A stretch of DNA of 64,000 nt from Raillietiella orientalis. Taxonomy: Eukaryota. The stretch covers positions 930,001 through 994,000 of the forward strand of contig JAYWIR010000036.1 in assembly GCA_036172245.1 (NCBI GenBank). Reading direction: 5' to 3'. The translations under genes and the position numbers were made by a program. The stretch's first letter is position 1; every line of letters begins with the position of its first letter. Shown here in pieces: positions 181-25,118 of the stretch. Under the pieces are notes generated by a model. The model saw only the letters and a program-made list of their open reading frames with translations, had not been told where the DNA came from and did no database searches.

Positions 181-1269
181 GTTGTGTAACGGCTGTGTCC
201 ATTCCCCGACACCTCCGTCGCGTTCACGGGGGGTACACTGCAAGAGCATCCGTTTCAGCATGCGTGGCAATTTCGCAGGCGGTGGAGACGAAACGGTGTG
301 AGATCATTAGGTGTGAGGTCGACGGTATTTCACCGCGCAACCAAAATTCCGTCTTCGAACGAGGCCGCATTAGAAGAGTATTTTTCTCGTCCCAGAGTTT
401 CATTTTTAGGGTTTTTTTTTTCTTCTTGCAGCACCTTTCCAAGGCTCGTGCCCACGCACTAAAGAAGTCATCTCCTTCAGCCCAGTCACCAAAGCGAGAT
501 ACGCATTCTTCACGCGTTCATCGGCGTCCCGTTCGATTTCTTTCCGGTCCTTTTCGATTTCTTTCTTGTAAAGCAGGACAACCCCGCAAAACGAACGGAC
601 AAGAAACAACACGATGGGTGATCTGGAGGACGGTGAAGTTCGCCGCGAGATGAAGTTTGCGGGTGCTCTTGAGTGAGAAGCAGGGAGGACCGAAGAATGG
701 TGCGCGGACAGCAGCAGCGACGTCTTGAAGAACACACTCTCCAGAAAGGGAGGCTTCCTGACGAGTGTGCGTCCCGGATCAGGGATAAGCTGAGCCTTTC
801 GTGTTTTATGTTCTCGAGAAAATTAACGAGCAATGAGAAGATGGGGTAAAGGAAGGGGAGGAGGAGGGGTCGAGGGAAACCCGCGAAACACAAGCGCGGA
901 CACCGGGGAGACGCGTGGCTCATCGTGCGGATCGCCATGCGATGCCGTTGCCTCTCCTCGGCCATTTTCGAATGCACCCAAGGCCCACCGGGGATTGTTC
1001 TGCAGGAGGTGACCATCGAGACGGGCGCGGTGGAGTCGTGCGGACGGTTGCGCGCGCCCACTTTCGCCGCCTGCCGAAAGTGACGAACTCGGAACGTGCG
1101 CTGCTTGCAGGTGTTTTTTGTTTTTGTTTTTCCTTTTCCCTCCCTCCTCCTCTCTCTTTTGGTATCTTTTTAGCCTGACGATCTTCCAGTTTTCCTCTGT
1201 CAGAGGTGCAGCAGAAGGTGCGGCAGTCGGATTTTCCCGCCCTCGTTTGTTGCTCATCGTGCGCACAAG

Positions 1270-2820
1270 AAGCGAGTGGTACCGTTCCTCCTTCTTGGAG
1301 CATCAGCAGCGCGGGCAAGAAACCACCAGCGGCGAAGGCTGCCTTCTTGAGGACGGAGACACCTCAGAAGGTAGGAGCGGGGCTCCATCGGACTCGAGCT
1401 GGTAGCTGCTGGTTCCGTGACGTCATCACCAAGACTTTCGAAATGCGCCCTTTTCCACTCTTGGTTACCTGCCTGCTCCTGCACCCCGATTTCTCCTGGA
1501 AGCTCCCGGTTCGGGGTGCCAGGACCGACGCACTCTCTTCGTGGACCCGGAAACTGTCGTCGGGAGCGCCTGCAGGGAAATTCGGAAGCGTTCCCTCCGG
1601 GGTTCTTTTCAGGGGAGGATGAAACAGGGGACGCATCCCTTGCCCGGGAGTCCCTCCGGAGAAGGAAATTCCAGGTGCCCTCGTTGGATCAGCCATGTGG
1701 CTGCAGTCTCCGCGCATGGCGCCGAGCTTCGCGGGTTCGATTTCCCCCCGCGAGATGACGCTGGTTGGTCTATTCAGGTGTGGCAGTGGCGGAAGCCGGA
1801 AATCCCCGGATGCCCCCTATGAGTGGCTGGGATTGGAAGTTGATCCTCCGAGGTCCTTCCAGGGCATCAAGCCCTTCAAGGTTCCCCTCTGGTTGTGAAA
1901 ATGGGGACGCCCTACCCTCCATCGCGTACTATGGAGCTGTATGACACCCCTTTCGGGGTTACCTCTCCAGCGTGCTAAGGAGCTCTCTATTCCCTTCGAA
2001 GTTCTCGTCAGAGGAGGAAACTGAGAGAGGATCCTTTCTGGGTTTCCTTCGGAGAAGCAAGAGGGGAGCGACTCCCTCCTGGGAGTCATTCCGGAGAGGA
2101 TGAGAAAGAGCTGGTTCTCTTTGGACTTCCCTCCCAAGGCGGAAGAGGAACAGAGTCCTCCTTCCAGAGCCTTCCTGGATTCGTAGAGTGGTTCCCCTCC
2201 CCCTCCTGGGGTACGCCCCACAACTCGAACAGTAACGACACTCACTCTCGGGTGGTGTGGACGGTGCTTCAGGAGCTTTGTGAGTCGGCCTACGTAGCGG
2301 GGATGACGCAGGAATGCTTTCAGGGAAATCTGGAACGGGAGCAAAGAGGCCATAAATAAAGTAAAAAAAAAAAGGGGTAGGGTAGGAGAACGTTCCTGAG
2401 CACATGCCTTCTTTCCTGAAAGCAGCTGTGCGTGATGGCGCCCCGGCCTGACCCCCTGCCTCACCGCAGTCCGGCTGCCTCTTCCTGGATGATGGAAATG
2501 AGGGATGGAGTGCAGGAAGCTGTTCTTCCGGCTGCTCAAGGAGGCGCTCCTGCTGGACTCGAGGACCTTCGTCGCCCTGGACACGGTGAGCCTTCCCGAC
2601 GCCGCTACTGGACTCCGCCCTTCACACGAAAGGGAGAAAACACAACGCACCTCCGCGCGCGCGCTCACCTGCTCTGGGTGCGCGGTGCTGCGTTTCCTCG
2701 TCCACACACGCTCCCCCTTCCCACACAGGGATCTTCCCCGTGGACCTGGTTGACGCCCCCCTCGGAGTTGCCTCTCTAGAGTGCTAGGAAGCTCGCCTCT
2801 CCCTTCGGGGTTCTCTTCAG
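1270..2820 (+). mobile_element. Decayed repeat, probably a second L1-like family (ORF2 C-terminal region), interrupted by a SINE
   Basis: 1820-2030 resembles 63720-63910 (same strand) and 2755-2820. The reverse complement of 1990-2260 resembles 33655-33900 (TTTCCTCCTCTGACGAGAACTTCGAAGGGA vs TTTCTTCCTCTGAAGAGAACCCCGAAGGGA). A CxxC remnant, WCGRC, is present. The L1 assignment is inferred. Confidence 0.5.
1682..1816 (+). mobile_element. tRNA-derived SINE-like element (same family as 3243-3430, opposite orientation)
   Basis: The blocks GCCATGTGGCTGCAGT, GCGGGTTCGATTTCCC, CGAGATGACGCTGGTTGG and GGATGCCCC match the minus-strand copy. Confidence 0.65.
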
Positions 2821-3242
2821 GGTAAAGTTTTCAACTAGCGATAATTACGCCTCCGCAAACGTCCTCGGCTATAATATTGCCCGTGCCAACTGCGAGATCG
2901 CAGGCAGGTGGAAGCTGTTGAGAGGATGGATGGACCACAGAGCAGCTGATCGAACCCGAGTGCCCTTCCACGAGGACTTCAACACTGGGACGAGCTGCCC
3001 ATCGGTTTCCTTAGTCCAGACCCGAAGCGGCCCCGGTGTTCGTGTACCGCAGCGCCCTCCCCTGAAGTGACGGGAGTCGGTCCTTCCGCTGTTGCACCGG
3101 GATCTTCCCCTGCAGAGCCAGCCGTCATCACTGGGCACTGGGGAGTGAACAGGGACACAGGGACTCATTTGCACAACCGGAGGGGAGCTCCCCCTCCTTC
3201 GTTCCTGGAATGATGCGGAGGTCGACTCCCCTTGTTCCGGAC

Positions 3243-3430
3243 CTCATCGGGGCATCCAGTTTGAACCACTACCGGCTCCGCACCCGAATGCAGGCCAACG
3301 AGTGTCATCTCGAGGGAGGAACTCGAACCCACGACGCGCACGAACTCTCGGCGTCGATCCTCCCCGCGGGGATTCGAACCCGCGACGCCTGGTGCCACGC
3401 GCGACCACTGTAACCACATGGCCTCCAACG
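3243..3430 (-). mobile_element. tRNA-derived SINE-like element with an A box and two B boxes
   Basis: On the minus strand, the A-box-like TGGTTACAGTGG is at 3416-3405, the B box GGTTCGAATCC at 3380-3370 and a second B-box-like GGTTCGAGTTC at 3329-3319. The body is homologous to 1682-1816. There is no complete cloverleaf. Confidence 0.7.
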
Positions 3431-3537
3431 CGGGTCAAAAAAGGCAGGCTCTACAAAAAATCACTAGTTTATTGCGTGTTTGGCTGGAACGAGAGGGGGA
3501 GACGTGCATTCTAGAAGAATTCGTGGGGTGGAAGAGC

Positions 3538-3786
3538 TCACTCTCGCCTCTGAGCTTCCGTCCTCAGGATCAGGTAGGAATTGACTGCGATGAACAAGTA
3601 GCACTCGAAACCGATGTACAGGAGGTAGGCGATTACGTGGAGGAGCAAGCGGATTATGAATTCCCCCACGTTTCCTAGGAAAAGGTCGAAGCTCAGCACC
3701 GCCTTCACCACCATGAGCACAGCATCAAAGAAAATCTTGAACTGCAGAGCTAGCATCCACAGTTCGAAATATATGGCGTCCGCAGA
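3538..3786 (-). CDS. Terminal exon of four-TM paralog A (orphan or alternative last exon)
   Basis: The acceptor TATTTTCAG is phase 0 and the exon encodes SADAIYFELWMLALQFKIFFDAVLMVVKAV...IGFECYLFIAVNSYLILRTEAQRRE*. It aligns with the 8038-8316 exon (FELWMLALQFKIFFD vs FDLWLTGMQLKILMD). A minus-strand AATAAA lies at 3468-3473. I found no convincing dedicated exons 1-2. Confidence 0.72.
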   Translation of the reverse strand, partial: SADAIYFELWMLALQFKIFFDAVLMVVKAVLSFDLFLGNVGEFIIRLLLHVIAYLLYIGFECYLFIAVNSYLILRTEAQRRE

Positions 3787-4504
3787 CTGAAAATACACCA
3801 CGTGAGAGCTTCTCGGGGGAGGGGGACTTTGGTTTCTTTCCTGACTTTCCCAAAAACAGGCAGGCAAACCCGAAAGGGGAGAAAGAATTGCATCGAGTCG
3901 GCGGAACGCGGGAAGAGGAGGAGGGGCGGAGGGAAAACGGTCGCGTGCAACGTCCGCCGTTGCTGCCCGCTTTCAGCACCGCCCGCGCAAACCGACCCTC
4001 CTCTTGCACCGGGTCGGAGCGGGCCACGTCCCCCCCCCCCCCGTCCTCCGTGCACCATCGTCTTCCTCCTCGCACGTGGACAGCCGGGGGTGAATCCCAT
4101 CTTTCCCGAGACCGTGTTTGCCGCTTGCCTTCGCGCGTCTTGCCACACCGCGGGCGTGGCGAAGATCTATCCGGTGATGGGGGGAATGGGGGGGGGGGGG
4201 CTTCCTCGATCGACGCACAAATGGGACGTGGCAGTGAAAGTGATCAGACAGAGGGGTTCCGTTAATTAGCTGCGCGGGAAGAGCTCGCAAACACTCGACG
4301 GGACCCGCGCCGCACAGCAGAACACGCACATCCAGACTGCACGCGCCTCTTCCCAGCGTCGCCCGCAACCTCCACGAGGTCGCAGCCGGTCCCTTGCGCT
4401 CGTGAGGTTTGAGAGATGCTGTTTCTTGTAACCAGACGTGAGGGTTATGTGGGGGGAGGGGGGGGGGCAGACCACGTCACTCGAACGATGCCGTGAAAAC
4501 TTAG

Positions 4505-4880
4505 AATACGTATATACATATGCGTATTAAAAATTAGAGTACGTATATATATATATATACATTATTCTAATTTTGCAGAATACATATATGTATATACATG
4601 TGAAATGACAGAGACCCGCAGACTTCAAGTGAACACCAGTGAACTCGTGTGCAGTTTTTGTGCAATTTGTAGGAATATGAGATTGTAGTGTGAATGAAGA
4701 AAAAGAGAAAATAAATTCATCCCACCCCTTGTGGGACTTGGGGAAACTACAATATATATTTATGTATACATATTCTAATTTTACAAGCACACACATATGC
4801 GTATGCGTGTGTGTACGTGTGTGTCGTTGTCATGTGGCGTATGTGTGCGGGTGCCGTTGTGATGTGTGTGTGTGTGTAAG
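4505..4880. repeat. (TA)n and (TG)n microsatellite-rich segment
   Basis: TA runs at 4510-4600 and TG runs at 4795-4877. Confidence 0.75.
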
Positions 4881-4953
4881 AGTGACGTCAAATGAGCTTC
4901 TGAGAACCATGGTGAACACCACTCGAGAATTCAAATGGAGCTGCTGACCAGTC

Positions 4954-5759
4954 GGGAGAGCTCATGACCCTGAATTTGGAAACTACAAAGGGTGAAGCTC
5001 AGCTAAGCACGGGAAGCTGAGAAGGAATTCGTGCAGCGATGGAACGGGAGTGATGGAGGAGACTGACGGTGCAGAATCGCCTTCTTAAAAGGGACCCAGG
5101 CACGTGCGGTGTGTTCTTTGACTGACACGTGTTTAACCAGCCGTTTTCAACATCCTTAAGCGAGATTTAAAGCGACGGGGCTTTTGGAGGACGCGTTCTG
5201 AACGTGCTGTCCTTTGCTCATTAAGGCGCACTTGGACGAAGGTTTCCTTCGTCAGTGGGAGCAGTGCCGGAGGCGCTGCTGAACACCGCAACGAGCCAAA
5301 TGCGTGTTTTTTCTGCGGGCAGCTACAAAGCGGTAGGTGGGCAAATGTCCCTTCTCCTGGGACCGGGAGCGTTCGTGTTGGTCGAGAGGATGCTGCCGCG
5401 TTGGATTTGCCAGTTGGGGCCGAAATCTGAACCATGCAGGTGCGTCGAGATGCTCGCGACCCACAATGACAGAGCCCAAGGCGTACGGCGACGGGGAAAC
5501 CTTTCCCGTACGTGGGAACCTCTGAACTTTGCCAGCTTCGTCTCCCGGTGAGGTAGCGAAGAAGTCCGTGGCAGCAGCCTCGGAACGCTCCTGTGGGAAA
5601 ATCACTTCCGTGTTCGAATGGGGGTCGAAAGATTCTCCGAGAGGGAGGGATAGCTCCCGACCCTGGATTTGGCAACTACAACGGTGATGTCAGCTACGCA
5701 CGGGAAGCCGAGAAAGGGATTTATGCAACGATGGAACGGGACTGATGGAGGAGACTGAC
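4954..5759. repeat. Diverged ~113-bp direct repeat pair (4954-5067 and 5647-5759)
   Basis: Both copies contain GACCCTG.ATTTGG.AACTACAA, GCACGGGAAGC.GAGAA and CGATGGAACGGGA.TGATGGAGGAGACTGAC. Confidence 0.85.
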
Positions 5760-8037
5760 CGCACACAGGGTCACTTTCTCAAAACGATTGTTCGGATGAT
5801 TTGAGGTTCGCTGTCCACGGAAACGGAATCCGGAAAAAACGCTGACATTCTCTGCGACGAAGATTTTCGGTTCTCCGTTGGTTGCAACGCATCCCGAGGG
5901 ATCATGACGTCACACGTTCATCGTCGTGCATAACGAAAAATCGTGCGTGTGAGCGAAAATTCCCATCCATCCATTGCATTCATAAAGTAATGCGATCTGT
6001 TAGGGGAAGGGATACAAAAAGGGAAGAAAAAAAAAAAAAAATGCTCGAGGGAACCCATGACGTTCGGAAACCACATACAGCGGGGAAGTGCCCATTCCGT
6101 TGCTTGGGGCTGCGTCGAGCGTGGGCTCCAGTTCTCAGGAAGGGTCAAAGTGCGACACTGCCACCTCAATCCGGGAAGGAGCCTCCATGCGATTCTCTCC
6201 GTGTGTTCCGATCAACAGCGGCGACTTTCCTATGCGCCGAGCGACCAGCGCGCCCCTTTTGCTTCGGTGCCGGATGGACGCGCCCGTGGTGTTCCCGATC
6301 TGTGCCTCCAACCGGAACTTCGCCGCTGCATTTTTCGAGGAACCTCTCGCAGTCCCGATGAAAAAGGAAAGCCTCCCGCGGCCTCTTTCCGGAACGACCC
6401 GTTCGTGTCCACCCGCGCGACGCAAGCCCAAGAAGGACTTCCGGAAACCGCGCGCACCACGCGCGGCCGGTGGGTCCGCGAGCTCTTCGGCGGGAAACTT
6501 TTCCAAGCTTTTTGCAGCTGGAAGATCCGCCCGTCCTGCCGGAGAGGTCAAACTGAGGCTGGCTCTTGCATCTCGTGCTTCCGCCGAGGGAGGGGCTTCA
6601 CGAACGGAGGCGAAGTTTTCGAAGACTGGCGAGACCTACTGCTGGTAAGGAGTCCCTGCGGGAGAGTTGCTGGCCGATTCATCCGGCGGGAGGGTTTGCG
6701 GGCGTGAGAGGCACAAGATGGGGGAGCCGAAGGCGCGGCGCCTGGATTTCCCCGCGCAGAACCAGCCGTCCGCCCGGATGAGCAAAGCTTGCGGGTTGAC
6801 CACTCACTGGACCGCTCCGCCTTGCGCCGAGCGGGAGCCGCTGAAGTCGCCTCGCGCGCCTCGACTCTGCTGGATCGATGCAGCTCGATTCGAGGACTGA
6901 CGGATGACGGCTTCCCCAGCACGGTTTTGCTCACAGCATCCGTCTGCCACGGCAGGACCGGACCGGAACCGAACGGTGCGCGCTGCCAGTCGCTGAGTGG
7001 GGGGGGAGGGGGGGGCGCCGACGACGACAAGTGGATGGTCGCACGCTTGCAGCGCGTTCCGGCGGCGTCGCAACTCGTTCCCGAGACGATCCTTCGCGTT
7101 TCTCCAGAGGTTTCAGTCTCAAACGTATGTGTATTTTCGTCCTTCTTCTACTGTCGCGTGCCTTTTTTTTTTCCTCATCAACTGCTAAACAGGACGGGAA
7201 GGTCCTTAATTGATGATGCGACGGAGGCTGTTCTGCTAGAGAAACCACTCGGTCTCCGCACGTGGATGGCTCTGAGCCAGCTCCCGCAGGCGACCACCAC
7301 CCGCAAACACGAAACACGCAATATGCCCCCGTGAAGCCGAGAAAGTCTTCCAAAGGTTATGCTCCCTCGAGAGTCACGCCCTGCTGCCTGTTTCTCGGCT
7401 TCTCATGGAGTAGAGGAAGGAGAAGCACCCTCGCGACGGTTCGCTTGCAGCGAGGGAGCACCCCGGAGGAAGACTGCGTGAGAGCATGTCAGGTTTTATT
7501 CTTCCCACGGGAAGCAGGTGACAGCGAAGACCTACAACGGCACGGGAAAGACAGCTGTCTCTAGCATCCGCTGGTTTCGCCACCGCTCTCGAACTGGAGA
7601 TGATCGAAAGTTAACCGGAGTGGAAGGCGCGGGGGAGAAGGAAGGGGAGGGGGGGGGGGGAAATCGCCTCTTTTCACCCTAGTGAACACTCCTCGACTTC
7701 TGGAAAAATGGAGCGGGACTAAAAAAGGCACAGACTCTTCGAGATGCACGGGTTTTTTCCTTCTCGAGGAGGGGGATGTGCACAGGGAGGGAAAGACAAG
7801 CACACACCAGTCCGCTGCTGTCTTCGCCGCGTTGCTGCCTCGGTGCAGAGAGCGCCTACAGCCGCGCGGCGGTGGTTCCAGCTCTCACGAGGTTGCAACC
7901 CTCAGCCGCGCTCCTGAACCGTTCAGCAGGAAGGGTGGTCGGTCGGTCGGTCGGGCGAGCGAGCCTCAGTGCTTGCGCCCCTTCCGCTCGTCGACGGACT
8001 TCATCAAAGAACAAGAATTTTTATTGGCACACATCGT

Positions 8038-8316
8038 TCACCACTTCTCGATAGTGGGGTTCACGTGGTACAACCTCCTTTGGTAGGAAAAGGTGCACCA
8101 GAACAAGTAGCTTTCCATCATTACGAACAGAATGGAGCGCAATTCAAACAGGAGCAGATCTTTGAGCATCGTCAACAGGTTGCGTCTTTCCTCTGGTTTC
8201 TTTTTATAAACACTCTCGGAGAAGAATATAGGCTTAATGATCATGACCGTAACATCCATCAGAATCTTGAGTTGCATACCCGTCAGCCAAAGATCAAAGT
8301 CCGAATAGCGGGCATC
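8038..8316 (-). CDS. Terminal exon of a four-TM paralog (probably exon 3 of paralog B, across a ~9-kb intron; 145 aa total)
   Basis: The acceptor TTCTTATTCTTAG is phase 0 and the exon encodes DARYSDFDLWLTGMQLKILMDVTVMIIKP...MMESYLFWCTFSYQRRLYHVNPTIEKW*. It shares the W-x3-[ML]-x2-K-I-x2-D and E-x-[YH]-L...SY motifs with paralogs A and C. A minus-strand AATAAA lies at 8020-8025. The link to the 17.3-kb exons is inferred. Confidence 0.75.
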   Translation of the reverse strand, partial: DARYSDFDLWLTGMQLKILMDVTVMIIKPIFFSESVYKKKPEERRNLLTMLKDLLLFELRSILFVMMESYLFWCTFSYQRRLYHVNPTIEKW

Positions 8317-11300
8317 CTAAGAATAAGAACATCAGTATGAAGGTTGCTGGTTGGGGTCAACTTATTTTACAGCAATTTTGAAAGCGGGATTTCCGTTTCC
8401 TCCGCCTCCGTTTTTGTTTTTTTATCAGAATTTATCGTTAGCGAACTTTCGTTTTCATTTTTACTTTCCCCTCTGAACAAGTCGACGGGGTCGCATCGCG
8501 TCCCGAAACGCCGGTGGGATCCGACGATCGTCTTTTGCATCCCCCTCGGAAAAGGAGTCCACCGCACCCCAAAATCACGGCGAGTGGGAAAGACGCGGCA
8601 AGAACATCGCTTGGAAGATGTTCCGGCAGACGGCGAACCCCTCGTCTGGCAACCGTGGAGGTCCACCTTCCATCGAGGTGGAATGGACGGATCGAATCGT
8701 CCACCTGCACTCTGCAGCAGCGGCAGTGCAGTAGCCGGTTTCGCGTTCCGCGTCGAGCAGTCCGCATTCCTTTCATTTCTTCGGGGGGGGGAGGGGGACC
8801 GACAGAAATGCCAAGCATCTGCAAAGGCAGCCCCCACCCCGAGCCCAGTCTCGCATTCGGTTGCTGCTTGGTGACGCACGGGAAGCCAAGTCAAGCCTGA
8901 CACGGTGTTCAGCAGCCTCGATGCCCTTCCCGAGTTTATCCACCAGATGCTGCGCGTTCAGAGGCGTGCACCATCCTCCTGCGCTTTCCTGGATCGTCGA
9001 CCCAGCAGACCTGAGCAACTTCACCGGGAATGGCTGCTAACTGGATTAGGATGGCACCTCGAAAATCTCGAGGTCGGACAACGGGTTCGGGATGGATCGC
9101 ATTTCGAACGCTCGAGCGTACCCTTGCACCGCGATCCTTCATCTTTCATTCCCTCTTTGATAGGAACGCGACTCGAGTGCCTGTGGCAGTAATCATCCTA
9201 AATGCATCCATTAATTCTTCGCCAGTCTTTCAGGCAGGAGTCCGTTGACAGGCTTCCCACTGTCGTCAAGCTGTTCATTTGTTTTCCCTTCCTCGCCGAT
9301 GCTTAACAGTCAACGACTCTAAGGTTAAGTATTCCTTTAATATTAATTTGTCTTCGGCAAGTTCCCCACGTCTGGAATCCACCGGAGAACATTTATTACC
9401 ACTGATAATGGGTGGAAAAAACAAAATAAAATAAATACACCTCGAGGAATAAATATGCGTTCTTCAAGATGCAGATGTGCGCAGTTGTCGGCCGCCTCTT
9501 TCGGAATACGAGAAATTCTGGAAAATCCGGGCGGAAAAAAAGTCTGCTTGTGCGCGCGCGGGTGTTCCTCCCCCCCAACTTTTCCTCAAGACGCAACTTT
9601 AACGTTTACTTTCCGGTTCTTTGAGGCATTACAATTTTAACGCGGGGGCCACTCATGCATTAATAAACAAGCTTTATTAATTTATTGCGGCTTGGCATCT
9701 TCCTGTGTCAGGAATGGTGTTTTGATTTTTACTCTCAGAGGTTGCTTGGATTTATGATTGCCAACTTCCTCTGGACCAAGTTTGGTGCGCGATTCGGGAA
9801 ACTTGGAAGTCTGTCGGGATGACGAAACCGGGCGAACGTCAAAATGTGCAGGGGCTTCCTGCAGCAGCCGCGGAAGAGACGCGTGCCCAGCTGGGGGGCG
9901 GTGGCGGCCATGCAAACAACGGACTCTTTTGAAAGCCCAGTTTTGCGGCCACCTGAAATGAAGCACCTGAAACGCAGCCGCGCGGATCCACACCGCCGCG
10001 ATGAAGCACTCTCTACCTGCAGAACCGGGAACGGAGTTGGTGAATTCGAAAGATGAAATGCAAGGAATGCGTTCGTTTCATCACGGGGTTAAGGCAACCT
10101 TCGCGGTAATCATCCCGAGCTGCCGCTATGGTGAATTTGCAAGGAATCCGACGCGTGTAAGCCTCCTTGAGAGTAAAATTGAAACCATAGCGAATGGTTG
10201 CTATAATTGAAATCCTGCTTCACCAACGGTGCTCCAGCTTGATCAGAAGGCAAAAAAAAAAAAACAAGAAAAAGGAAAAAGAAAAAGACAGGATTCCCAA
10301 GGGGAAACATTTGTTCAATTGTCCCCCAAGTGTACTTGGACTTTCGATTCTGAAGTGGCCTCCGGCATTTTCCCCCATTTCCCGTTGCTATCACAACGTG
10401 TGTCCCTTGCCACGGCGCCCGCCATCATCTCCGCCGGCTCTGTCACGTGACCCGAATCGCCGCCGGAACCTGCGTTCCTTGCGTCAGCCTTGCTGCACCT
10501 CGGGTTTCTTTGCCTTTCAGCGAGCAAGTTCCCAATCGTGTGCCCGTCTGCGTTGCAGCGAAAGAACAGAAGGATGTGTCCGTGCGCACGGGGAACCAAT
10601 GCACATGGCAGCTCGAACTGACCACACCAGCAGGTGCGTTGGTTGACCTCTTGATGCGTTCCGGTTGCATTCTAGATGGGAAGGTTCCTCTCAGCAGTAC
10701 TAAAACCGGGAGCTCATCTTCGTCGTCTCACTTCGCTAGCAAAGACGCCTTGGTGTTTTTCAACTGCTCTCTTTAGGAAAGGAACTGACTGCTCCTCGAT
10801 GCATCGGATATGTCGCAAACATTCTTGCATCAGACTCCAAATCACTGGTGTGAGGAAACGGGTGATTTCCCTATCCAGCTCGCTTCACGGATTCAATCGG
10901 TGTTTCCGCTAAGGTGATGCGGCAATACTTTGCTCGGTGATGTTGAGAACTGACCTTTTCCGAACCAAAGAGCTGTTATTTGTGTAACTCGTTTTAACAT
11001 CGAGTTGCGTTCTTTTTGCGGATTTCACTTTCCGTTCTTCAAATTGGAATCCTTTTTTTCTTCGAGTCTGAACTCTTCTCGAGTTCAAGAGCCCCAACCT
11101 GTTTTTGTGCCTGTTGCAAAGGAACTCGAACATGTTTAAGGGAGGCTGACGCAAGCTCGGATGAATTCATCCGACTTAAGATTCCACATACCACATCGCC
11201 TTCCACGGCAGCCACACAGTTTACGAACATGTTTTTTTTTTTTTGGAAATTCACAGACGTGCATGTTAGGTATGTGAATTTCACGCGGATTCCCGACACA

Positions 11301-14300
11301 CGGTGTCCCGTGCCGCGGATTCACGACACGAGACACAGAACAGGACGTTTGGAATTTCAATGTGGGAAAAGCTCGTCAAATGACTTTAGGGAAGCAAAGA
11401 GGAATGCAAAGAATCACCCTCGGCTTAGTGGTGCTCGTTTTGTGCTTGCAGTGCTCGAGGTGTTTCAGCAAATAACCAAATGTTTGAAGATGGCACTCTC
11501 ATTCTTCCGCACTGGAAAATTCCACGATAATGCTCAATTTGAAAAGGGAAAGCATTTCTACGTATTCTTCCTTCTGTTTTCGTTTCTTACAGATCTGAGG
11601 AAGTACATCTTCAGCTCAAGTACCTTTCTTTCTTCCTGCAGCAAACGCAAACAAGAGTTGCTTTGATTCCAGCCGCTGCCTTGAATTTCACTTAGCATTG
11701 AAGACGATGCACACAGCACCGATCTGCAGATCCCGAGATGCAGGAAACCCAGAAAGACACCCTACATGTTTTGTGCTTTGAGCGACGGAATACCCAAAGA
11801 GTTCTGAATAGACCAATGAAAGCAGTGCAGGGTGGTATTTGAAATTTCCTGCTTGCTACGTGCTCTGCTTTTTCACTGCAGTAGAAAAGCGAGGACTGAC
11901 ATCTAGGAAAAGACTTGCTCACATGAATTCGTGGGAACTGCACTCCGAGGAGTGACAGAAGATGAAGTTTCCCGGTTCTTGTAGACACTCAATAATTTCT
12001 GAACAAAGTGATGTTTAAGGTCAAAGACGGAAGATGGAAAGAGAGAAGAAAATTTTATGAGGAAGTTATCAACAGCGGTGAGTGGAAGTCTGTTCGAAAA
12101 AGGAGAAGAAAACAAGCTGATTCCTGTCTCAGCCGCGACCAAACAGTTCTCAACTCTGAATGGTCAAGAAGTGAACCTTTCCTGACAAGGGGAAAACCTG
12201 GCCTTGGGCATGAGCTGCAACAGCGCCTCGTTTCCCGTTTCGAGATGATCCACGCAGGAAAGCAGACGCTGTGCGAACGCTGTTTTGGATCTCGGATCCA
12301 TCTGATGGGAAGGGAGGTTTTTTCGAGTCACCTTAGAAAACAGCGACCGTGATGATATGAATCTGTCCTGGTCAGTTCGCCTGACAAGAGTAGGCACCAG
12401 TGCGTGCTTCCTCTCTTGCAACTCTCACATTTTGTAGATTTCCATCCTCCAATAAGTATCTGTCTGTCTATTCCCAGACCTCTCATCTAAGCACATAGTG
12501 CAAGAAACATGGAAATTTTCCGCTTGTTTCGTCGAAGAGTTCCTTTTCCCCTCCACCTGTGTTTGTGTTCCTTTTTTTTGATTCGCTGCCAAGTTCCTGA
12601 TAATTGAAGGCCATGCTGGAACACCGATGAGGCATCCAGATGAGGCGCAGTAGAGAGGAAAATGACTCCACATTCAAAGGTGCATTTCTCCAGGCTGATT
12701 GGACTCGCAACGGACTACGCTCAGCATCTGGATGGTGCCCGAGAGCGTTCGTGGTCGAGCTTCAGGGAAGGATCTCCGGTTTCCCTGTCACTTGGCTAGC
12801 TCGAGGGCGCAGATTGCTTTTTGTCTGACTGACGCCACCGAGTGTCTTGCTACTACCTCATTCTAACTACCATTGCATTTGTCAGTCGGACTCCCGCTGG
12901 CTGCTACTATAATGCGCTCGCGGAGAATGAGAAAGGAAAGTGAAAGTGCTCCCAATGAAAAATGGAATACGGAATGGGAACATTAAGAGACGGCAAGTTC
13001 CCATCACACTGCTTATAGGTTAACGGGTCTCATGGAACTGTCCAGGACACAGAATCCTAACAAGGAGACTTTCCTAGGACGACGACAAGACGGGAAGGTC
13101 CAAGATCCGTTCAGTCTTGTACCTGAAGCGAACACCGCAGACCAGCTTGTGGATGGAGCCCTGCTTGGACAAGAGATCGGAAACGAGCACATCGTGCGGA
13201 CGAAATCGAACTGGTCGAGAGTAGGTGCAAAAGGGCTCGTCCTACAGAGGAACTTGCTTCGTAGAGCACGTGCGGCCCAACGAGGAACGAAACGGGCAAG
13301 AGCAGCAAAAAATGGGTCCTCAAAAAAAGGGAGAGACCGTACTGGAACACACCGCACGCTCCAATCACGTACTGTCCTAAATACACGTTCCTCCTTGCTG
13401 TGCAAAACTACTTAGGCTAATGGCTACAAAGTTCCTGGGAAACATTATCCTTTCAGCAACTTTTACTGCACATGTGAATGCATCCGCGGCTTTCCGGGGA
13501 ACTCGGTGATTTGTGAGAAAGTCTTTCGCACTCGATCGATTTTCGGACGACCGACGAGCTCAGACTGAGAGTCTGCCCTTCTTACCAACGAGCAGTCGAT
13601 GCCAGTTTCTTCGCGGTCATGTTCCCACGGGCTCGGCACGCGCGCGAATCGCGGTCACTTCTGCTTCCGGAAACCATCGCACGGGCAAGTCGGAGAGTAT
13701 CCTTCCACGCGTTTCCCGCCACGCAGTCAGGAACAGCGTCCAACTTGTGCTACGCAACGCTCTCGAAGGCCATTCGAGGCCGCGTCAGAGGTCACTCCTG
13801 TGCCGCGGAGTCAGAGGATTCTTGCAGATCCGCCTACCAAGTGCAGCAGTTGATAAGTGCTGCTGCGAAACTGGATCCCAACCATAGGCAGCACACAGCT
13901 TTCAGAACAGAGTTTTCTAGAGCCGGCAAAAATGGTACAAAGCCCAAGGCTGCACATCCCAACTTTGAACATCTCGAACGTGCGCTCGTTGACCACAGGA
14001 GGCGTTGCAGCGGAGGATGTTCGAACTCTCGAGGAGGGATAACTTCTCAACTCTTCAAGCCATTCGTAGGACATAGAAGGTGGTGGTTGTGCTTTGGGAA
14101 GACATCGCGAAAACCCTAGCGGAGGCGTAAACTTTTGGTATTTGAGTGATGTGAAGGGGAGTTTAAACGAATGTGGGAATCAGGTGCATTCAGGGGAAGC
14201 AAGGCTGGTTAAATTCGTAGCATCTCCCAAGAAGGCAAAAGAGCAGTGGTAGCCCAAGCAAAGAATCATGGGTGTACCCTGAAATTTTGAGGTTCCTGAG

Positions 14301-17300
14301 ACCCCAGCAGCCTTAGATCGCTTCTAAAGACCCTGTTCCACAAAAATGGGTATCGGCAAAGGGGAAGAATTTTTTCCATTTCCTGAAAACCCAGTGCACG
14401 AAGGACGATGAGTTTAAGATTTCGCTCTATCCTGGGGCACGGTTCTAAACGTGACCGCCACCATTTTTGAAACCTAACATTTGACTCATTTAAAAATCAA
14501 AGAATTCCTAGAAGACGAGAATTCTCGATGAGGAATCATCGATTTGGAAGTGAATCGATGAACCATGCATCCTAAGTGTAGTCATCCACTAAACTGTCAC
14601 AAAGCTACCAGATTTTAGTAACAGAGGCAGCAGCAGCAGCAGCAACAACAACAAAAGCCAGAATTTTCACGTAAAGTGCAATCTCGACTGATGCACTTCT
14701 CTTTTCATTTCCAAAGAGCATTGAGAGCTCCAGCGCCACACATATGCACGCTTGGCAGCACCAAGGTCGAACTTCAGAGTCGAGAAATGATCGTGCGAGA
14801 ATCCCTCTCTGAAATGCCTGGGGACGTGGTCCTCGGATGTACGTGGAGGCCGAGCATCTGCGAGTGCCTGTCCACGGACGCTTTTCCGACAATTTGGAAA
14901 AAGCTAGGGTAATCCTTCTGGTTGACTCTTTTTGGCTCGATAGCGAAAAGGGATGTACCAAAAAGAGGACTATTTTGTCAACTGCGACGATTCTTTAGAC
15001 AGATACTCTGGCCAGATAGAGATACTTCCAGAAGTCTGCTTCTTTGCTTTAGCGGTGTGCTCGTGCTGTTGGTTGTGTCTCGCAGAGAACAAGGCGAAAC
15101 CTGTATTGATGGTCCATCCGCTTTGTCCAGGAGACTTTTACTTGTCCGGCGTCTTAACTCTTCATCCAACGATTCACAAGAATACAGAAAAAGACACTAA
15201 ACAGAAATCGCTATATAATATATTTTCAGAGTGGGTTTTCCCATCTCATCGTGTTGTTACGGAGACCACACAGGAATCTTGTGATTAGCAATTAACACGT
15301 GATCTACAGTATTTTAACTGTCTGTGTTCATCGTCTGCTTTCCTAGAGACAACGTGCAGACACCGTGGATCTCGTTGCTTCGCTTGTTTTTCTAGATCAG
15401 ATTTTCAAACCCAAAAGGTTATTAATTAGCGTCACGGAATATTTGAAAGCGAAAAATATGAAATCAAATGGGAATGGACATCTGGTAGCCATGGGGGCTG
15501 AACAGGTCTCTTTCGTGCAACGCTTACGGACACATTAAACTCCAAGGTCGGCTTCTGTTCTTCGCTATAGCAGCAGACGTTGTTCCATACACGTGCTGCA
15601 AGGATGCTGGAACCGCTCATTCAGACCAATGTCTGCTTTCCGGGTTCATAGTGTACACACCCTTGGAACCGAATTGGTTCCCGCAAAACAGAACGAGCAC
15701 AAAGCGTTCTTCTTCAGAAATGACAGCTGTGAATTCTACGACTTAAAAGAAGTGAACTGCTTAGAAACAAGCGCTCATGACGGTGGTATTTCCTTCGTGC
15801 AGATCAAGTGTAGAAAGCTGACGAGGTTACAGATTTGGAGCATAAGATCATCGTGCAATGCCTTTCTTCTTTTTTTGAACTGAATGGTCAGTGCTCGTCT
15901 TCAGATTCAAGGCTTCTTCATTCCAGGGAAGCTTTGGAAAGCTTTATTTAGAGCTTTGGAAAGGTTATGCTTATGACGTGAAATGATGCTTTATGACGTA
16001 AAAGGGACGTAGAAAACTCATGTCCCAGATGTCCAAACTCCCATTCCAAGCCCTAATTCCTGGGATTCTTATCATAAGTTATTTACAGGTTCTCAAAAGA
16101 ACCTCCGACGTTTGAAAGACATGCGAAATGTCATCTTTATGGAGGGATTCCAAAAGGGTGGATATTTTCCTCTAGGAGATTCTGCTTTCCCAGAGCTGTA
16201 CCACCATTCTCCAGGTAAGATGAGCGAGGCTACTATTCCTCAATAAAAGACAGTATCCAGAAAATCCAGAAGTGCGCAAGGGGGGGAGAGGAGGAGAAAG
16301 GAATCGATCTTGGAATAAGAAGAGATTTTCCCAGATGACTTTCGAAGATAAAGGAGTTGAGACTTTTCGGAAAGATTAACTTCAGGTGAGTTCCGAGAGA
16401 ATCCATTCCACACATTTGCGGGCATCCGACGGAAATCTTTTCGAGATCACTATTATTATTTTGAAAATTCGTTCCCTATACCACTGTAATTGTGTGAATT
16501 TATTTCCAGACAAGTTTTCCCCACTCCTGCAATCATTTCTACGTCTTCACTCATGAGGCAGATATCGTTTCCGTTCCCATGGAACTGATACTGTTCCATG
16601 CAGTTAATTGGAAATGTTCAACACCCAAAAGACTGTTATTTTGGGATTGTTTTTTTATCTTAGGCTTCAGGTACCTTGCAACAACAACAACAAAAACAAC
16701 AACAAAGAAGAAGAAGAAGAAGCAGTAATGACTCGCAAGATGACTGCTGTGGCCATTGTCTGGATTAAAATTAGTCAGTATTTTTAGATGTTCAGCATCT
16801 TTCTTTGCTTTTCTCTGGCATCTTAGACCAGGTTTTAGTTTTTTATTAAACGGAGAGAGGCCAAGCAGTGAGAGAGTGGATTAATCATTCAAGAACTTCC
16901 GTTAACCATGTGATCTCGGCTGGAAACATCACATGAGGGAGCAGCACTACTTTTCGATTCTTTTTTTAGAGACAGCTGAAAGATAGCAGTGCGATGTGTC
17001 TCCTGTTTCGTTTCACTTAATGAATTGGATTGGCATGATTCAAAACATTCATTACTTATTCGATCAATCAATTGGGTCGGGATTTAAAATTGTAAAAGGC
17101 CGTTGGATTCATATGTCATCCTCATCCCCTCTATACATGGATGAATGATGACATTTGAAGTCAGTACCAGAACTTTTGCTACAAGTACACCTATTCAACT
17201 ATGTATGCGTATGTATGTGTGTACAATATATATACTCATTGGTAATGTAAGTTATTCACAAGTAATAAGGATAAATTAAAACTAAACAAATAAGATAAAA

Positions 17301-17313
17301 GAGTGCTACTTAC

Positions 17314-17527
17314 TGCTATGACCAGTATCAGCAGAAAGACACCCAATAATTTGTCAAATATCAGTGGACCCTTAAAAACGACATGGATGGAGAAGAAGAA
17401 AAAAAAAAATACATGGAATACTTACGACGAGGAGATAAACAATACTTAAAAGGATGCATCCTTTTCTCAAGTCAAGTCCAAGGATGTCCCTCTTAAGAGG
17501 CAAGCTTTCCCTTTGCTGTCTGTCCAT
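17314..17527 (-). CDS. Exons 1-2 of four-TM paralog B
   Basis: Exon 17527-17426 encodes MDRQQRESLPLKRDILGLDLRKGCILLSIVYLLV and is followed by GTAAGT and a 55-nt intron. Exon 17370-17314 is exactly 57 nt (GPLIFDKLLGVFLLILVIA) and is followed by GTAAGT. It is clearly homologous to paralog C exon 2 (GSLMIDKLMATILIIALLL). Confidence 0.82.
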
Positions 17528-19029
17528 GTTTACACAGACAGTATTGAAATCAATGCTTTGCAAGCTATCGAATTCATCGAAGAGTCTTAGAACTGCTAAA
17601 TTTTTCAATCGTCGGACGAAAACTGAAAATCATCTTTCCACAATAAAAAAAAAAAAAAAAAAAAAAAAACAGCAAAAAAGCAAAAAAAACAAAAAAGGAA
17701 AACTGTTTGACCAGATTTTGTTGACCGATACGTCCGTTGTCCTAGCAACAGCAATAACGGAAAACAAACAAACAGCCCAAAAGCAAGTTCTTCGGCCATG
17801 AGGAGGAGGCAAGCCGTTTGAGAGCGAAAGAGCGCCCCCAACGAATCAGCGACAATCTGCATCATTAATTAGGAATCGTCAGTGTGGATTGCCGGCGTCC
17901 ATCGCTGGGTGACTGGCTGCTGGAATGGATCGTTCCGGGGGGGAAGGGGGAATCGCAGCTACCGCGCAGGGAGTGCCTTGGTCCGGGCCCAGTTTGGAAT
18001 GTCCCGGATCTTCCCAGACGGATCCACCCGAGCTTTCCTCTCCGAGGAGCGCACCGCAGCGCACCTCCGAGAGGCCAAACCGAACGCGCGTTCGGTTGAC
18101 GCGTTTATTTTTACGAAAGAGTACAGACAGACACCCGACCTAGCAATTTGGATGGGTGGCTGAGGGGGCCGATAAAAGTTTCCCCCTGAGTGCGCGCGCG
18201 CGCGCGTGTTTGTGTTGTACCCCCTCCCCCTCCCCAAGAAAAAAAAAAAACCAAAAGGCGGGATTAATAGTTTCCGCTGGAAACACCCATCCGGAAGAAA
18301 CTTTTTGGTCGCAGGAAGCAATACCGCGGGCGGGGGGTGATTTCGCTCCCTGGAAGGAAGCCTGGTCCCTTTCCTTCCGGCTAGATGTGCGCACCTCAGC
18401 AGAAAGTAGTAAGCTCCCCCCTGTTCGCCGAATCCTCCGCCCCGGACCCATCGTGTCACCGCAGGCTGATAGAGAGAGAGTCCTCGCTGCGACGAAAGGG
18501 ACCTCGAGCTGCGACCGCACTCGAGAGGCCGGGGGAGGCTGGCTCGAGGACAGCGAGATGAGCCGAGTCCCGAGTGGTTTCCTGTGATCAGCGCTGCTTC
18601 AGCAAGTTTCCAGGGATTCCCATCCTTAGAGCGGCGGACGAGGAGAGGCTGCTCACGCGGCTTGTTTGCGGGGAAGGAACGACCGCCAGCCCTCCGTCTC
18701 GGTGCCGAACCCTCGTCTCCCGCGCGTCCCACGTTCGAACTGCTTCTTCGGGTCCGTTTGTCCCGGGTTTCAGAGTCAGCTGGATGTGCCCCCTCGAGCA
18801 TTTCGTTGCCTGCCGTCCTTTCGGATGAAGCTGCGTCCAAAGGGTGGTCGCGGTCGACTCGGAATGACCGTCCATCCGGTGCGCCTCTTTCATTATTGAA
18901 ACTCGGGCTGCCGATCCTCTGCTCCGCTGCCGTCGGGCACGACGATTCGTGCCCCCAGTGCTAACGGGCCGACCTCTTTCCGCGAACCGCCGACGTTTGC
19001 CGCAGTGGGGCGGCAGCCGCCGGGTCGAT

Positions 19030-19200
19030 GCCGAAGAAGATAAAGCCGATGATGAAGATGAAGGCGAACGTAAAAATGAAGATGATGATGATGATGAAGA
19101 TGACGATGAAGGCGAAGGTAAAAATGAAGAACATGAAGATGATGAAGCCGATGATGAAGAAGATGAAGGTGAAGATAAAAATGAAGAGGGCGCTATTGAA
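19030..19200. repeat. (GAT/GAA)n low-complexity tract with three higher-order units
   Basis: GAAGG[CT]GAA..TAAAAATGAAGA recurs three times within GAT runs. Confidence 0.85.
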
Positions 19201-19884: not shown

Positions 19885-20404
19885 TCACCGGCGCTCGGAG
19901 TAGATCTGGAGGTACGAGTAGGTGACCACGACGAGGTGGAGCTCCAGCAGGATGTTGAAGAACGCCGCCATGTACATCGTGACGCCCAGGTAGATGGCTG
20001 TCTCGCTGTCCAGGACCTTCCCCGTGTCCTGCTGGTACCTCTTCAGCTGGAAAGGGATGATAAGGGGGGATATGATGAGGATGAGCACGTCCAGGATGAT
20101 CTTGACGTCCATGGCGAGTATCCAGCCGTCGACGAGTCCCCTCCTTTTCTTGAGAGGGGACGGGTATGAGAGGGAGGGGAGACGGCCAAGGGGCAGGGCG
20201 GGCTTACCAGAAGCAGTGCGATAATGAGGATGGTGGCCATGAGCTTGTCGATCATCAGGGATCCCTGGGTGCACAGAGTAGGGGGCGAAGGAGGGGAATG
20301 GGAGCATGGCTTACCAGCAGCAGGTAGAGGAGCGACAGCAGGACCAGTCCGTTGCCGACGCTCAGGCAGAAGACGGAGCGGACCAGAGGCTCTGTGCGCG
20401 CCAT
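19885..20404 (-). CDS. Small four-TM membrane protein, LAPTM4/DUF4728-like, paralog C (136 aa)
   Basis: Exons are 20404-20315 (MARTEPLVRSVFCLSVGNGLVLLSLLYLLL), 20264-20208 (57 nt, GSLMIDKLMATILIIALLL) and 20148-19885 (KRRGLVDGWILAMDVKIILDVL...LELHLVVVTYSYLQIYSERR*). Both donors are GTAAGC, the introns are 50 and 59 nt and phase 0, and overlapping minus-strand AATAAA signals lie at 19855-19864. Confidence 0.85.
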
Positions 20405-21429
20405 CTCACTCGTCTCCTTCGCGGCGGCAGGCGAGGTGAAGGACCACCTGAGTGTAGGGGGTGACCGGACCCGCTGCTGCACTTCGAGCTGCTCCCGTCC
20501 TAGGAGAAGCTAGCGACGGAAAAACAAAAAAACAAAAACAAAACAAAAACAAAAAAAACGAAAGGAAAGAAGAAAAAAAAGCAAGGAGGCCAAACGAAAC
20601 CACCCGAGTTGCTGGGCAACGGTCCCACGACTATTGTTCTGTGCTCACTCCACTTTGTTTTTCTCTTTTTCCTCCCCCTCCCCTTCTTGCCACGCTTTCC
20701 CCCCTTGAGGAGGGGGTTCCACTCTCGCCGCGCGCACAGCCTCGGACGTCGGACATCTTGTCGCCCGTTTTCTCTCGGATCATGGAAGCCGACGGTGAGC
20801 TGGGACCGGGCGGCCACCCAATCCAGGAGCCCCCGTGATGCTGCACCCCGGAAAATGAGCGCCTCGGGTCTAAATTCATCCGAAATGAGCGTCCGACGCA
20901 GCCCTTGGCGTCCCCCCCCGTCCGATCGGGGCGGCCCGGCGTCTGCCACTCCACCATGGCAAATGCCGGCGGTTCGCGGAGGCCGCGGCTCCGCGCTTTC
21001 CCTCAAAGTCTGCCAGGTGGGAGCGCTGCTTCCGCCGGAGTTCCCTGCTCCCTGTGGGACGTTCAGCACTGTCGGCAGGGCAACGCGGCTCTTCGTGGAA
21101 GGTGGGCGATGGCCGTGTGTGTGTGGAGGGGTGATTCCAGCCGACATGGCTACCGGTTTCGGGTTCGCTTTTACCCGACCGCCTACGCAGGCTGGCATTC
21201 CCTCCCGTTCCTGGATACGTCGAAGGATCGGTGCTTTCGTCCGGCCTCCCCTGAGGATCGCCGAGGGTTTGCACGGAGGCGACGTTCCGCGCACGAGACG
21301 ACGGACACCCGAGGGGCGATTTCCGGCTGCGCCGTCCTCCACCGGGGACCCGCGGGGAGGGGATCTTTCGTGGTCCGGCTGCTTGGAGGGAGCGCTGCCC
21401 AGCGCTCCCTCCAAGCGCAGACAGTGGAA

Positions 21430-23740: not shown

Positions 23741-24718
23741 CTAAGTCTCCTTGAGGTGTTTGACGTAGTACTCGTTGACGTACATCAGACACAGGTAGTC
23801 AACGATGAGGTGCATCAGGGAGATGAGCCAGTAGCACATGTTCCTGCTGAAGAAGGTTTCCCGTTCCTGGGGGGGGGGAGACGCCTGGTACGTGGTCAGG
23901 AGGTACACCAGCGTGACGACCAGGATGATGAAGAGGAAGAGTATGCGGATGAACATGACCACTATCCAGATGAGGAAGATGTCGCTTGAGTCCTAAAATC
24001 GCATCTCTAGGTCACAACCTCTCCTTTTGCTTCTTCCCTTCCTCCTCCTTCCCTCTTCCTCTTTTCCCCTTCCAACACTTTTCGCACTTCCTCCTCCTTT
24101 TCTGCACCCTACCATTCCACCACCTTTCTCCTTTCTTCCTCTTTTTCGTACTTCCCTTCCTCCTCCTCCTCCTCCTCTTCGCTGAGGAATGAACTGACTC
24201 CCACGGGGGCGCGGAATGAAGAGAGAGATTCCCGAGGCTCTCCTCCCCTCCCCCTCGCTTCTTCTGGATACCGCGTGTCAATGCGTCATAGGTCCAGGGT
24301 TCGCTCTTATGCGGAGCGTGGTGGCGCCACTGGCTGCGAGACGTTCTTAGGATCCCGAGGGAGCAGCGGATTCGTCCCTCTTTTCCTTCTCTACCATCCT
24401 ACACTACCCCCTCTTTTCCTTCGCCTTTCCTTTTTTCCCCGGAAAGGTCAGGTGCCGCCTGGGTGCCCTTCGTCAGAGAGGGCGCCTGCAGACGTGCGCT
24501 CGGACCGGGACCGCGACCTCGCGCGCACGCTTCCAAACTTACCAGGAAGTGCCCAATGGCGAGGATGAGGCCGCACAGCTTCGTGCACGGATCAGGGGAC
24601 TAGGCAGAGGATGGGAGTGGGGGGCATTGTTGGTAAGGAGGTCATACGTTACCAGAATCAGCTGCGCTATGGCGACCAGCCACACGGTGGCCCTGGGGTC
24701 CTTCAGTCCGGTGGCCAT
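23741..24718 (-). CDS. Small four-TM membrane protein, LAPTM4/DUF4728-like, paralog D (124 aa)
   Basis: Exons are 24718-24653 (MATGLKDPRATVWLVAIAQLIL), 24599-24543 (57 nt, SPDPCTKLCGLILAIGHFL) and 23992-23741 (DSSDIFLIWIVVMFIRILF...VDYLCLMYVNEYYVKHLKET*). Donors are GTAACG and GTAAGT, acceptors are TAG, and all introns are phase 0. A minus-strand AATAAA lies at 23609-23614. Confidence 0.8.
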
Positions 24719-25118
24719 GCGGGAGATACGCGCGGGGGCTGCCTCTGGAGCTGCGGCCCGAAAGCCCCGAGGGTTCCTCTGAGGCGCTTTGGGGCACTCA
24801 CTGAGTGCTCAGAGGCGCGCGGGTTCGCTCGACCTCCTCATCATCATCCGGGGGGAGGGCGTGCCACGTAGCATAATTTTTGCCTCGCATTCATCTCCAC
24901 GGAGTTCATTGCTGCCCTGGGGGGTGGGGTGGTCTGGTTTCCCTGGTTACAAGCAAAGCCGCCAAAGGCCCTCTTTCGGGGGTGGGGGAAACAGCTTCGT
25001 GATGAGCCGCCCTGCGGCTATCCCGTCCTGCGCTGCCCGTGCTCCCCGCCCGGGAGCAGCAGGCACGCCTCCCGGCACGTCATGTGACAACCGGCAGGAG
25101 AAGTCAAAGGTCGGGAGG

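Follow-up and report, generated by a model that had tools for sequence, protein, structure and literature searches.

How a gene that keeps its first two exons, and has no third exon beside them, obtains the second half of its protein is the question raised by a locus on contig JAYWIR010000036.1 of Raillietiella orientalis (assembly GCA_036172245.1). The window analysed here is a 64,000-nucleotide (nt) stretch (positions 930,001 to 994,000 of the contig; all coordinates below are those of the window). Its minus strand carries a tandem family of genes for small proteins of ~140 amino acids (aa) whose four hydrophobic helices are spread over three phase-0 exons, a plan obtained by reading and checked by script. 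In genes A (24718-23741) and B (20404-19885) all three exons are present and close together. Gene C has exons 1 and 2 only (17527-17314), as an earlier note on this DNA had observed, and its coordinates are confirmed. Two further terminal exons of the family, named here after their acceptors as the 8316 and 3786 exons, lie downstream. Gene C probably splices to the 8316 exon; that it does so with the 3786 exon as a distal alternative last exon is a more tentative reading, possible if not quite probable, but the one favoured here.

Family plan and gene layout

The division of labour among the exons is constant throughout the family. Exon 1 provides the ATG, a short polar stretch and hydrophobic helix 1; exon 2, which is 57 nt long in every unit, codes for helix 2; the terminal exons, of 82-92 codons, hold two hydrophobic segments (helices 3 and 4) with a loop, then a stop followed by AATAAA. 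At a hydropathy cut-off of 1.6 over 15 residues, exon 1 shows one helix in B and in C, every exon 2 shows one and every terminal exon two; gene A exon 1 falls below the cut-off used. The components of the cluster are the following.

Gene A exon 1: 24653..24718, minus strand; 22 codons, ATG at 24718, donor GTAACG
Gene A exon 2: 24543..24599, minus strand; 19 codons, 57 nt, phase 0
Gene A terminal exon: 23741..23992, minus strand; 83 codons plus stop, AATAAA at 23614, 127 nt past the stop
Gene B exon 1: 20315..20404, minus strand; 30 codons
Gene B exon 2: 20208..20264, minus strand; 57 nt
Gene B terminal exon: 19885..20148, minus strand; 87 codons plus stop, AATAAA at 19864 and 19860, 21 nt past the stop
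Gene C exon 1: 17426..17527, minus strand; 34 codons, ATG at 17527
Gene C exon 2: 17314..17370, minus strand; 19 codons, 57 nt, donor GTAAGT from 17313
Putative gene C intron 2: 8317..17313, minus strand; 8,997 nt, AT-rich, open reading frames (ORFs) without Pfam match
Proximal terminal exon (8316 exon): 8038..8316, minus strand; 92 codons (8316-8041) plus stop, AATAAA at 8025, 13 nt past the stop
Distal terminal exon (3786 exon): 3538..3786, minus strand; 82 codons (3786-3541) plus stop, AATAAA at 3473, 65 nt past the stop

The lengths of exons 1 and 2 (66/57, 90/57 and 102/57 nt in A, B and C) are multiples of 3 in six of six cases, and the phase 0 that the earlier note assigned to all junctions is borne out by exon lengths divisible by 3. 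Intron 1 measures 50-55 nt in the family (55 nt in gene C), and the short introns overall 50-59 nt. The five family donors read GTAAG or GTAAC without exception, and each acceptor is a YAG that follows a pyrimidine-rich stretch. From the exon-2 donor to the gene's own terminal exon the distance is 550 nt in gene A (donor 24542) and 59 nt in gene B (donor 20207). Exons 1 and 2 of gene C are likewise intact, both of its donors are GTAAGT, and no third exon lies nearby.

From the donor at 17313, the distances to the two orphan terminal exons are 8,997 nt (8316) and 13,527 nt (3786), in agreement with the 9.0 and 13.5 kb given in the earlier note. Both exons are intact and, as was also claimed there, each has its own stop (the stops end at 8038 and 3538) and its own polyadenylation [poly(A)] signal. 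The signals are not a common motif in this part of the sequence: the minus strand has AATAAA at 23 places in the window, only two of them within 1-8000, and one of these two is that past the stop of the 3786 exon.

Four terminal exons and three exon 1/2 pairs

The count of exons has been examined by several scans. A profile of the four terminal exons, run against the 1,410 six-frame ORF fragments of the window, recovers exactly these four (E 1e-28 to 1e-37; next 0.57). A scan of both strands for AG, a 57-nt ORF and GT followed by A or G gives 115 candidates, three of which are exon-2-like (scores 106, 90 and 84; next 8). The N-terminal exons of gene A match neither their B nor their C counterparts by low-stringency tblastn, and because they are too diverged for detection by similarity, scans based on structure only were added. 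One of them covered the minus strand of 1-17313 for phase-0 exons running from AG to GT (36-120 nt) or from ATG to GT (45-180 nt) that contain a 12-mer with a hydrophobicity of 2.2 or more; another took the same exon types at a cut-off of 1.4 in 3787-8037, and a third all 15-residue hydrophobic windows of 3787-8037, the relaxed exon scans spanning exon lengths of 36-150 nt.

The relaxed structural scans found no further transmembrane-type exon in 3787-17313: their candidates are low-complexity repeats (poly-T, GTT and CTG runs), the 3786 exon itself, or weak. In the same interval, low-stringency tblastn searches started from the six N-terminal exons return noise only (at most 17 bits, E above 1), and the minus strand of 3787-8037 contains no stretch able to code for two helices. 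Within the putative intron 8317-17313, the profile search finds no terminal-exon remnant, 17320-14500 and 11000-8300 having also been read. The count of three exon 1/2 pairs for four terminal exons, from which the earlier note had started, is upheld by the profile, 57-nt and structural scans alike.

Condition and age of the two orphan terminal exons

Both orphan exons are in phase 0 and have acceptors, CTTAG (8316) and TTCAG (3786), that follow pyrimidine tracts. The 3786 acceptor (TTTTCAG) stands at the position homologous to that of the family. By reading, a branch-point-like CTCAC occurs ~20 nt upstream of it, and a U/GU-rich stretch lies behind the AATAAA of the 8316 exon. The 3786 exon retains four family-invariant residues and two clear hydrophobic helices, and by our own arithmetic its open frame of 82 codons has a chance of ~0.02 in random sequence of equal composition. 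Its guanine-plus-cytosine (GC) content at third codon positions (GC3) is 0.73 versus 0.61 in the flanks, an excess of +0.12, and the excess is +0.12 to +0.13 in the 8316 exon (0.66 versus 0.54) and in gene C exons 1-2 (0.47 versus 0.34). GC content at second positions (GC2) in the 3786 exon is far below GC3, and is ~0.2 in the best 50-codon stretch. None of the hallmarks of a pseudogene was found in this exon, that is, no stop, frameshift, lost acceptor, lost AATAAA or decay of coding composition.

The relationships among the terminal exons have been estimated by global alignment with shuffling controls. The 8316 and 3786 exons form the closest pair (26 of 82 residues identical, 32%; z 8.4), ahead of B/8316 (z 6.5), B/3786 (z 4.8) and gene A against each of the other exons (z 3.7-4.3), and they detect each other by tblastn (E 6e-5); both also carry the residues invariant in the family, which makes the pattern more than a chance one. 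Among the N-terminal halves the closest pair is that of C and B. Taken together, these two pairings indicate that the 8316 and 3786 exons are sister duplicates, which by sequence comparison arose after the B/C split and are younger than it. Sensitive blastn of 7900-10500 against 3400-6250 finds only two matches, one within the exon (65% identity along 66 nt) and one of 17 nt that belongs to a local repeat; since no noncoding similarity is left between the two units, the duplication is old. Despite this age, the 3786 exon looks constrained and functional.

A possible gene with alternative last exons

These elements fit together as an array of four paralogous minus-strand units from a family that would be lineage-specific, A and B being the compact and complete ones. 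Unit C would start at 17527, and its exon 2 would be spliced over the 8,997-nt AT-rich intron to 8316. The 3786 exon, which appears to be the old duplicate partner of the 8316 exon, to have no helix-1 and helix-2 exons of its own and still to be under constraint, would be reached when the donor at 17313 joins the acceptor at 3786, skipping the 8316 exon together with its poly(A) site. The outcome would be two isoforms with a common N-terminal half and swapped C-terminal halves. We infer the two long-range splices, and whatever regulation may decide between them, from the anatomy of the locus. Because exons 1 and 2 of gene C are intact and have consensus donors, the gene appears to be active and to require a terminal exon; by elimination, the donor at 17313 must use a distant acceptor, of which 8316 is the nearest. 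For the 3786 exon, the lack of helix-1 and helix-2 exons of its own makes an alternative last exon the likeliest route to a four-helix protein.

Upstream elements of the family

Sequence elements upstream of the genes bear on the question of whether the 3786 exon has a start of its own. X-box-like sites were defined by the pattern GTNRCC N0-3 RGYAAC with at most 1 mismatch, and T tracts by at least 24 T in 30. The elements concerned are listed here.

Gene A X-box-like site: 24937..24950, minus strand; 1 mismatch, 232 nt upstream of the ATG
Gene B upstream element: 20518..20620, minus strand; perfect X-box 20620-20608, 216 nt from the ATG, T tract 20580-20518
Gene C upstream element: 17636..17749, minus strand; X-box-like site 17749-17736, 222 nt from the ATG, T tract 17703-17636
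Composite that may belong to the 3786 unit: 6012..6113, minus strand; X-box-like site 6113-6099 (1 mismatch) and, 57 nt later, T tract 6041-6012
Fourth T tract: 10250..10288, minus strand; 1.9 kb upstream of the 8316 acceptor, the nearby X-box-like sites all having 2 mismatches

The number of X-box-like sites in the window (20) is not above the Markov expectation (16.6 +/- 4.2), and sites with 2 mismatches occur about every 430 nt. The position of the sites is more telling: since there are only 20 of them in the window, the agreement before three ATGs is very unlikely to be due to chance, the probability of finding the three sites within a 20-60-nt span being ~2e-7 to 7e-6 by post hoc calculation. 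In genes B and C, a T tract follows 27-39 nt after the X-box-like site, and from its end to the ATG there are ~115 nt in B and 109 nt in C. The whole window has just four T tracts on its minus strand, all inside the gene cluster; that at 6041-6012 is 2.2 kb upstream of the 3786 acceptor. Comparisons of the upstream segments with one another by blastn-short give low-complexity matches only, and a MAFFT alignment of the four upstream regions is uninformative. The position of the X-box-like motif suggests a shared promoter element, possibly one for expression in ciliated cells, and as a position-conserved motif it provides a lead to the family's site of expression. The composite at 6113-6012 may serve the 3786 unit as a promoter, or be what is left of one.

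Rival readings of the 3786 exon

The earlier note had proposed that the donor at 17313 may splice to either acceptor and so exchange helices 3 and 4 with their loop. The anatomy that this needs is present; the part that stands less firmly is the dependence of the 3786 exon on gene C, given the X-box-like and T-tract site and a candidate first exon upstream of it.

Weak candidate first exon of the 3786 unit: 3846..3893, minus strand; begins with an ATG, 16 codons, phase 0, donor GTCAGG before a 59-nt intron

A number of observations weigh against alternative last exons. Because the proximal exon has a canonical AATAAA, read-through to the distal one would need regulation, and the ~4.2 kb between the 8316 and 3786 exons is GC-rich and looks intergenic. 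The composite at 6113-6012 has the promoter layout of the family (chance ~0.02-0.04, post hoc), and the candidate exon that starts with an ATG in phase 0 is placed one family-sized intron upstream of the 3786 acceptor. The GC3 of gene C exons 1-2 differs from that of the two terminal exons (Fisher p 0.035 and 0.003), so that composition does not tie the former to the latter; GC3 tracks local flank GC in all three pieces, and pairing by composition is non-discriminating. Lastly, docking/selector pairing between the start of the intron (17313-16314) and stretches of 400-1,000 nt ahead of each acceptor does not go beyond shuffled controls: shuffling gives stronger mean energies (-127.4 and -133.8) than the -112.7 and -122.6 of the actual duplexes, and the longest perfect complements (10 and 11 nt) compare with a shuffled maximum of 12.

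The most direct rival assigns the 3786 exon to an independent fourth gene that has a promoter of its own and would begin with a short non-homologous first exon or at the Met of codon 11 and give a truncated product of two or three helices, gene C using the 8316 exon only. This reading, which we regard as rather unlikely, accounts for the succession of a 1-mismatch X-box-like site and a T tract at 6113-6012, two of the four minus-strand T tracts of the window being those of the B and C upstream regions, and for an ATG at 5905, at 208 nt from the 6113-6099 site (216-232 nt in A, B and C). It is also consistent with the phase and the family-sized intron of the candidate exon 3893-3846, and with the canonical poly(A) signal of the 8316 exon, which would end gene C transcripts. 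The candidates for an own 5' end are nevertheless weak and in silico only: the donor GTCAGG is poor when compared with the GTAAG and GTAAC of the family, the candidate exon is set in a pyrimidine tract that is hydrophobic by default on translation and has no coding signature, and the ORF from the ATG at 5905 is not family-like. The promoter-like composite is post hoc and only marginally unlikely by chance, and helices 1 and 2 would have been lost although the exon retains the acceptor position and conserved residues of the family.

The absence of exons 1 and 2 of its own from the searched sequence, the possible promoter relic at 6113-6012, and the repeats and microsatellites that fill 4500-5760, as a rearranged spacer might, are also what would be expected if the 3786 exon were left over from a fourth paralog that recently lost its exons 1 and 2 by deletion and whose protein is no longer expressed. 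Because the duplication is old, an unexpressed relic should have decayed; with 32% protein identity and no noncoding similarity to its sister, the exon still has an intact frame, acceptor and AATAAA and a coding-type pattern in which GC2 is far below GC3. Compared with the age of the duplicate, the loss would have to be a very recent event, in what we infer to be a narrow time window, and a remnant is considered unlikely. Both orphan exons might instead have private T-tract promoters and unconventional first exons, leaving gene C exons 1-2 without a partner. The T tracts lie 1.9 and 2.2 kb before the two acceptors, with a spacing of 4.25 kb (4.53 kb between the exons), and the ORF 10310-10224, from ATG to GTGAAG, is in phase 0 with a usable donor; yet this ORF is the T tract read as poly-Phe, the T tracts of B and C being clearly non-coding, the X-box-like sites near 10288 all have 2 mismatches, and the intact exons 1-2 of gene C with their consensus donors argue for continued use. 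Such an arrangement is very unlikely. The combinatorial repertoire proposed in the earlier note, with the donors of A (24542) and B (20207) also reaching the distant terminal exons, is extremely improbable: phase 0 at all junctions speaks for it and nothing else does, whereas A and B have their own terminal exons 550 and 59 nt past the donor, with AATAAA 127 and 21 nt past the stop, and transcripts spliced across paralogs would have to run on past one to three poly(A) sites and through complete genes.

Composition and surroundings of the cluster

The window has ~60% GC and a CpG observed/expected ratio of 0.9. Within it, an AT-rich block with best breakpoints at 9175-17875 (GC 0.458 versus 0.565 and 0.593 in the flanks) begins at the gene C promoter and takes in exons 1-2, whose GC3 of 0.47 is far under that of the paralogs A and B (0.85-0.92). 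The idea that this block is the gene C transcription unit was dropped, as it has no clean end at the 8316 poly(A) site. The long ORF 4100-3846, which is in frame with the candidate first exon 3893-3846, was considered as coding and rejected, its GC contents at the three codon positions being flat (0.68/0.64/0.66) and four of the six frames being open; this weakens the candidate exon too.

Several repeats accompany the cluster. A short interspersed repeat has two copies, 5647-5759 and 4954-5067 (85% over 115 nt), in the spacer that precedes the 3786 exon, and a 17-nt piece of it recurs at 8874-8890, ahead of the 8316 exon. A 284-nt direct repeat (22591-22874 and 25119-25402, 96% identity) has one copy 400-680 nt upstream of the gene A ATG and the other between A and B; it is much younger than the gene duplications, which points to a mobile element or a recent local duplication. 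Purine/pyrimidine microsatellites of GAAGAT and GGAAGG types fill the A/B/C spacers and intron 2 of gene A.

Microsatellites: 19036-19187, 21560-21632, 22407-22600 and 24020-24180; purine/pyrimidine-rich

Past the 3786 exon, the minus strand of 3340-3440 contains a stretch that by eye recalls a transfer RNA (tRNA) T arm or B box (GGTTCGAATCC), ~100-200 nt past the stop and beginning ~30 nt beyond the AATAAA. ARAGORN calls no tRNA in the whole window, and the stretch may be a fragment of a tRNA-derived short interspersed nuclear element. Further on, ~580 nt downstream of the same AATAAA, Rfam reports a U4 small nuclear RNA match at 2815-2894 (minus strand; 46.8 versus a gathering score of 46), which is 80 nt long yet spans model positions 1-138. 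On the other side of the cluster, a gene of several exons for an emp24/GOLD (TMED5-like) protein occupies ~38000-35160 of the minus strand, and its matches carry PF01105. For its exon fragment 36815-36603, the named matches are from thrips at 54% identity, the best match overall reaches 58% and none is near-identical, a weak pointer to an arthropod whose own proteins the database lacks.

Homology of the family

The search for relatives of the family used single terminal exons, not spliced proteins, as queries. In Pfam, with E values up to 10, the four terminal exons match no family at cut-off, the best matches being at chance level (E 0.078-1.2). A HMMER profile of the four exons finds 0 matches at E 0.001 or better among 1,835,955,588 proteins, a word-indexed protein search with the terminal exon of gene B finds no homologues at near or greater lengths, and 328 pattern matches to a single-exon query in JGI metagenome contigs yield 0 confirmed. 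The Pfam scan of ORFs of the window likewise gives no family at the thresholds used, its single listed row having E 0.035; it covered sets of 17 and 13 ORFs and 150 of the 308 ORFs of at least 110 aa, and of the other 158, mostly on the minus strand, those contained in the two smaller sets. Language-model leads from the Atlas go to unnamed eukaryotic clusters (scores 0.85-0.91), and in two arthropod clusters (scores 0.82-0.85) 12-28% of the members carry DUF4728. As far as these tools see, the family is an orphan.

If gene C does use both terminal exons, the locus would offer a minimal and readily tested case in which a tandem duplicate was recruited as an alternative last exon, with half of a four-helix membrane protein exchanged in a family that databases do not recognise. 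If the 3786 exon has its own start, it would be an old duplicate surviving as a two-helix half-protein. For annotation, automatic gene finders probably miss the 3786 exon or the 9-kb intron. A combined reading, in which a lineage-specific animal (probably arthropod) family with X-box promoters is expressed in ciliated sensory cells and exchanges half of its protein at one locus, is distinctly unlikely to hold in all its parts.

Comparison with known systems

Partial duplicates and unitary pseudogene fragments occur in tandem gene families, and the 3786 exon is like them in being a family exon that stands beside complete paralogs without the rest of its gene. It is unlike them in being undamaged, with its signals and coding composition kept despite the old duplication. 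In terms of protein type, the DUF4728 and MARVEL/Glam1-like clusters of arthropods and nematodes are similar in size, in their four helices and in their restriction to animal lineages, a likeness that comes from language-model leads only; they differ in that the terminal exons have no Pfam match at gathering score and that the profile has 0 matches.

As for the upstream elements, they can be compared with the X-boxes of RFX-dependent ciliary genes in Drosophila. According to the excerpt of PMC2375033, a single X-box is not predictive without conservation. The B and C sites fit the restricted consensus GYTRYY N1-3 RRHRAC given in that excerpt, and the gene B X-box also fits its RTNRCC N1-3 RGYAAC. 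Unlike the Drosophila RFX genes, the conservation of the sites is here among paralogs only, and they are known from sequence alone.

The closest parallels to the favoured reading, a gene C with alternative last exons, are found in Drosophila. In pip, the terminal exons are tandemly duplicated and mutually exclusive, and PGRP-LC has alternative 3' variable regions, as described in the excerpt of PMC9013439. In common with the systems of that excerpt, the locus has homologous terminal exons one behind the other on one strand, after 5' exons that they may share; both come with an acceptor, a stop and a 3' end of their own, and a choice between them would swap a homologous module. In contrast to what the excerpt describes, there are here two copies, 4.5 kb apart and 32% identical, known from DNA alone and without detectable competing RNA structure. 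A further difference is that the array lies inside a cluster of complete paralogous genes, so that the spare exon may stem from duplication of a whole gene rather than of an exon. If the proposal is true, duplicated alternative last exons, which are a known arrangement, would be new in an otherwise unknown protein family.

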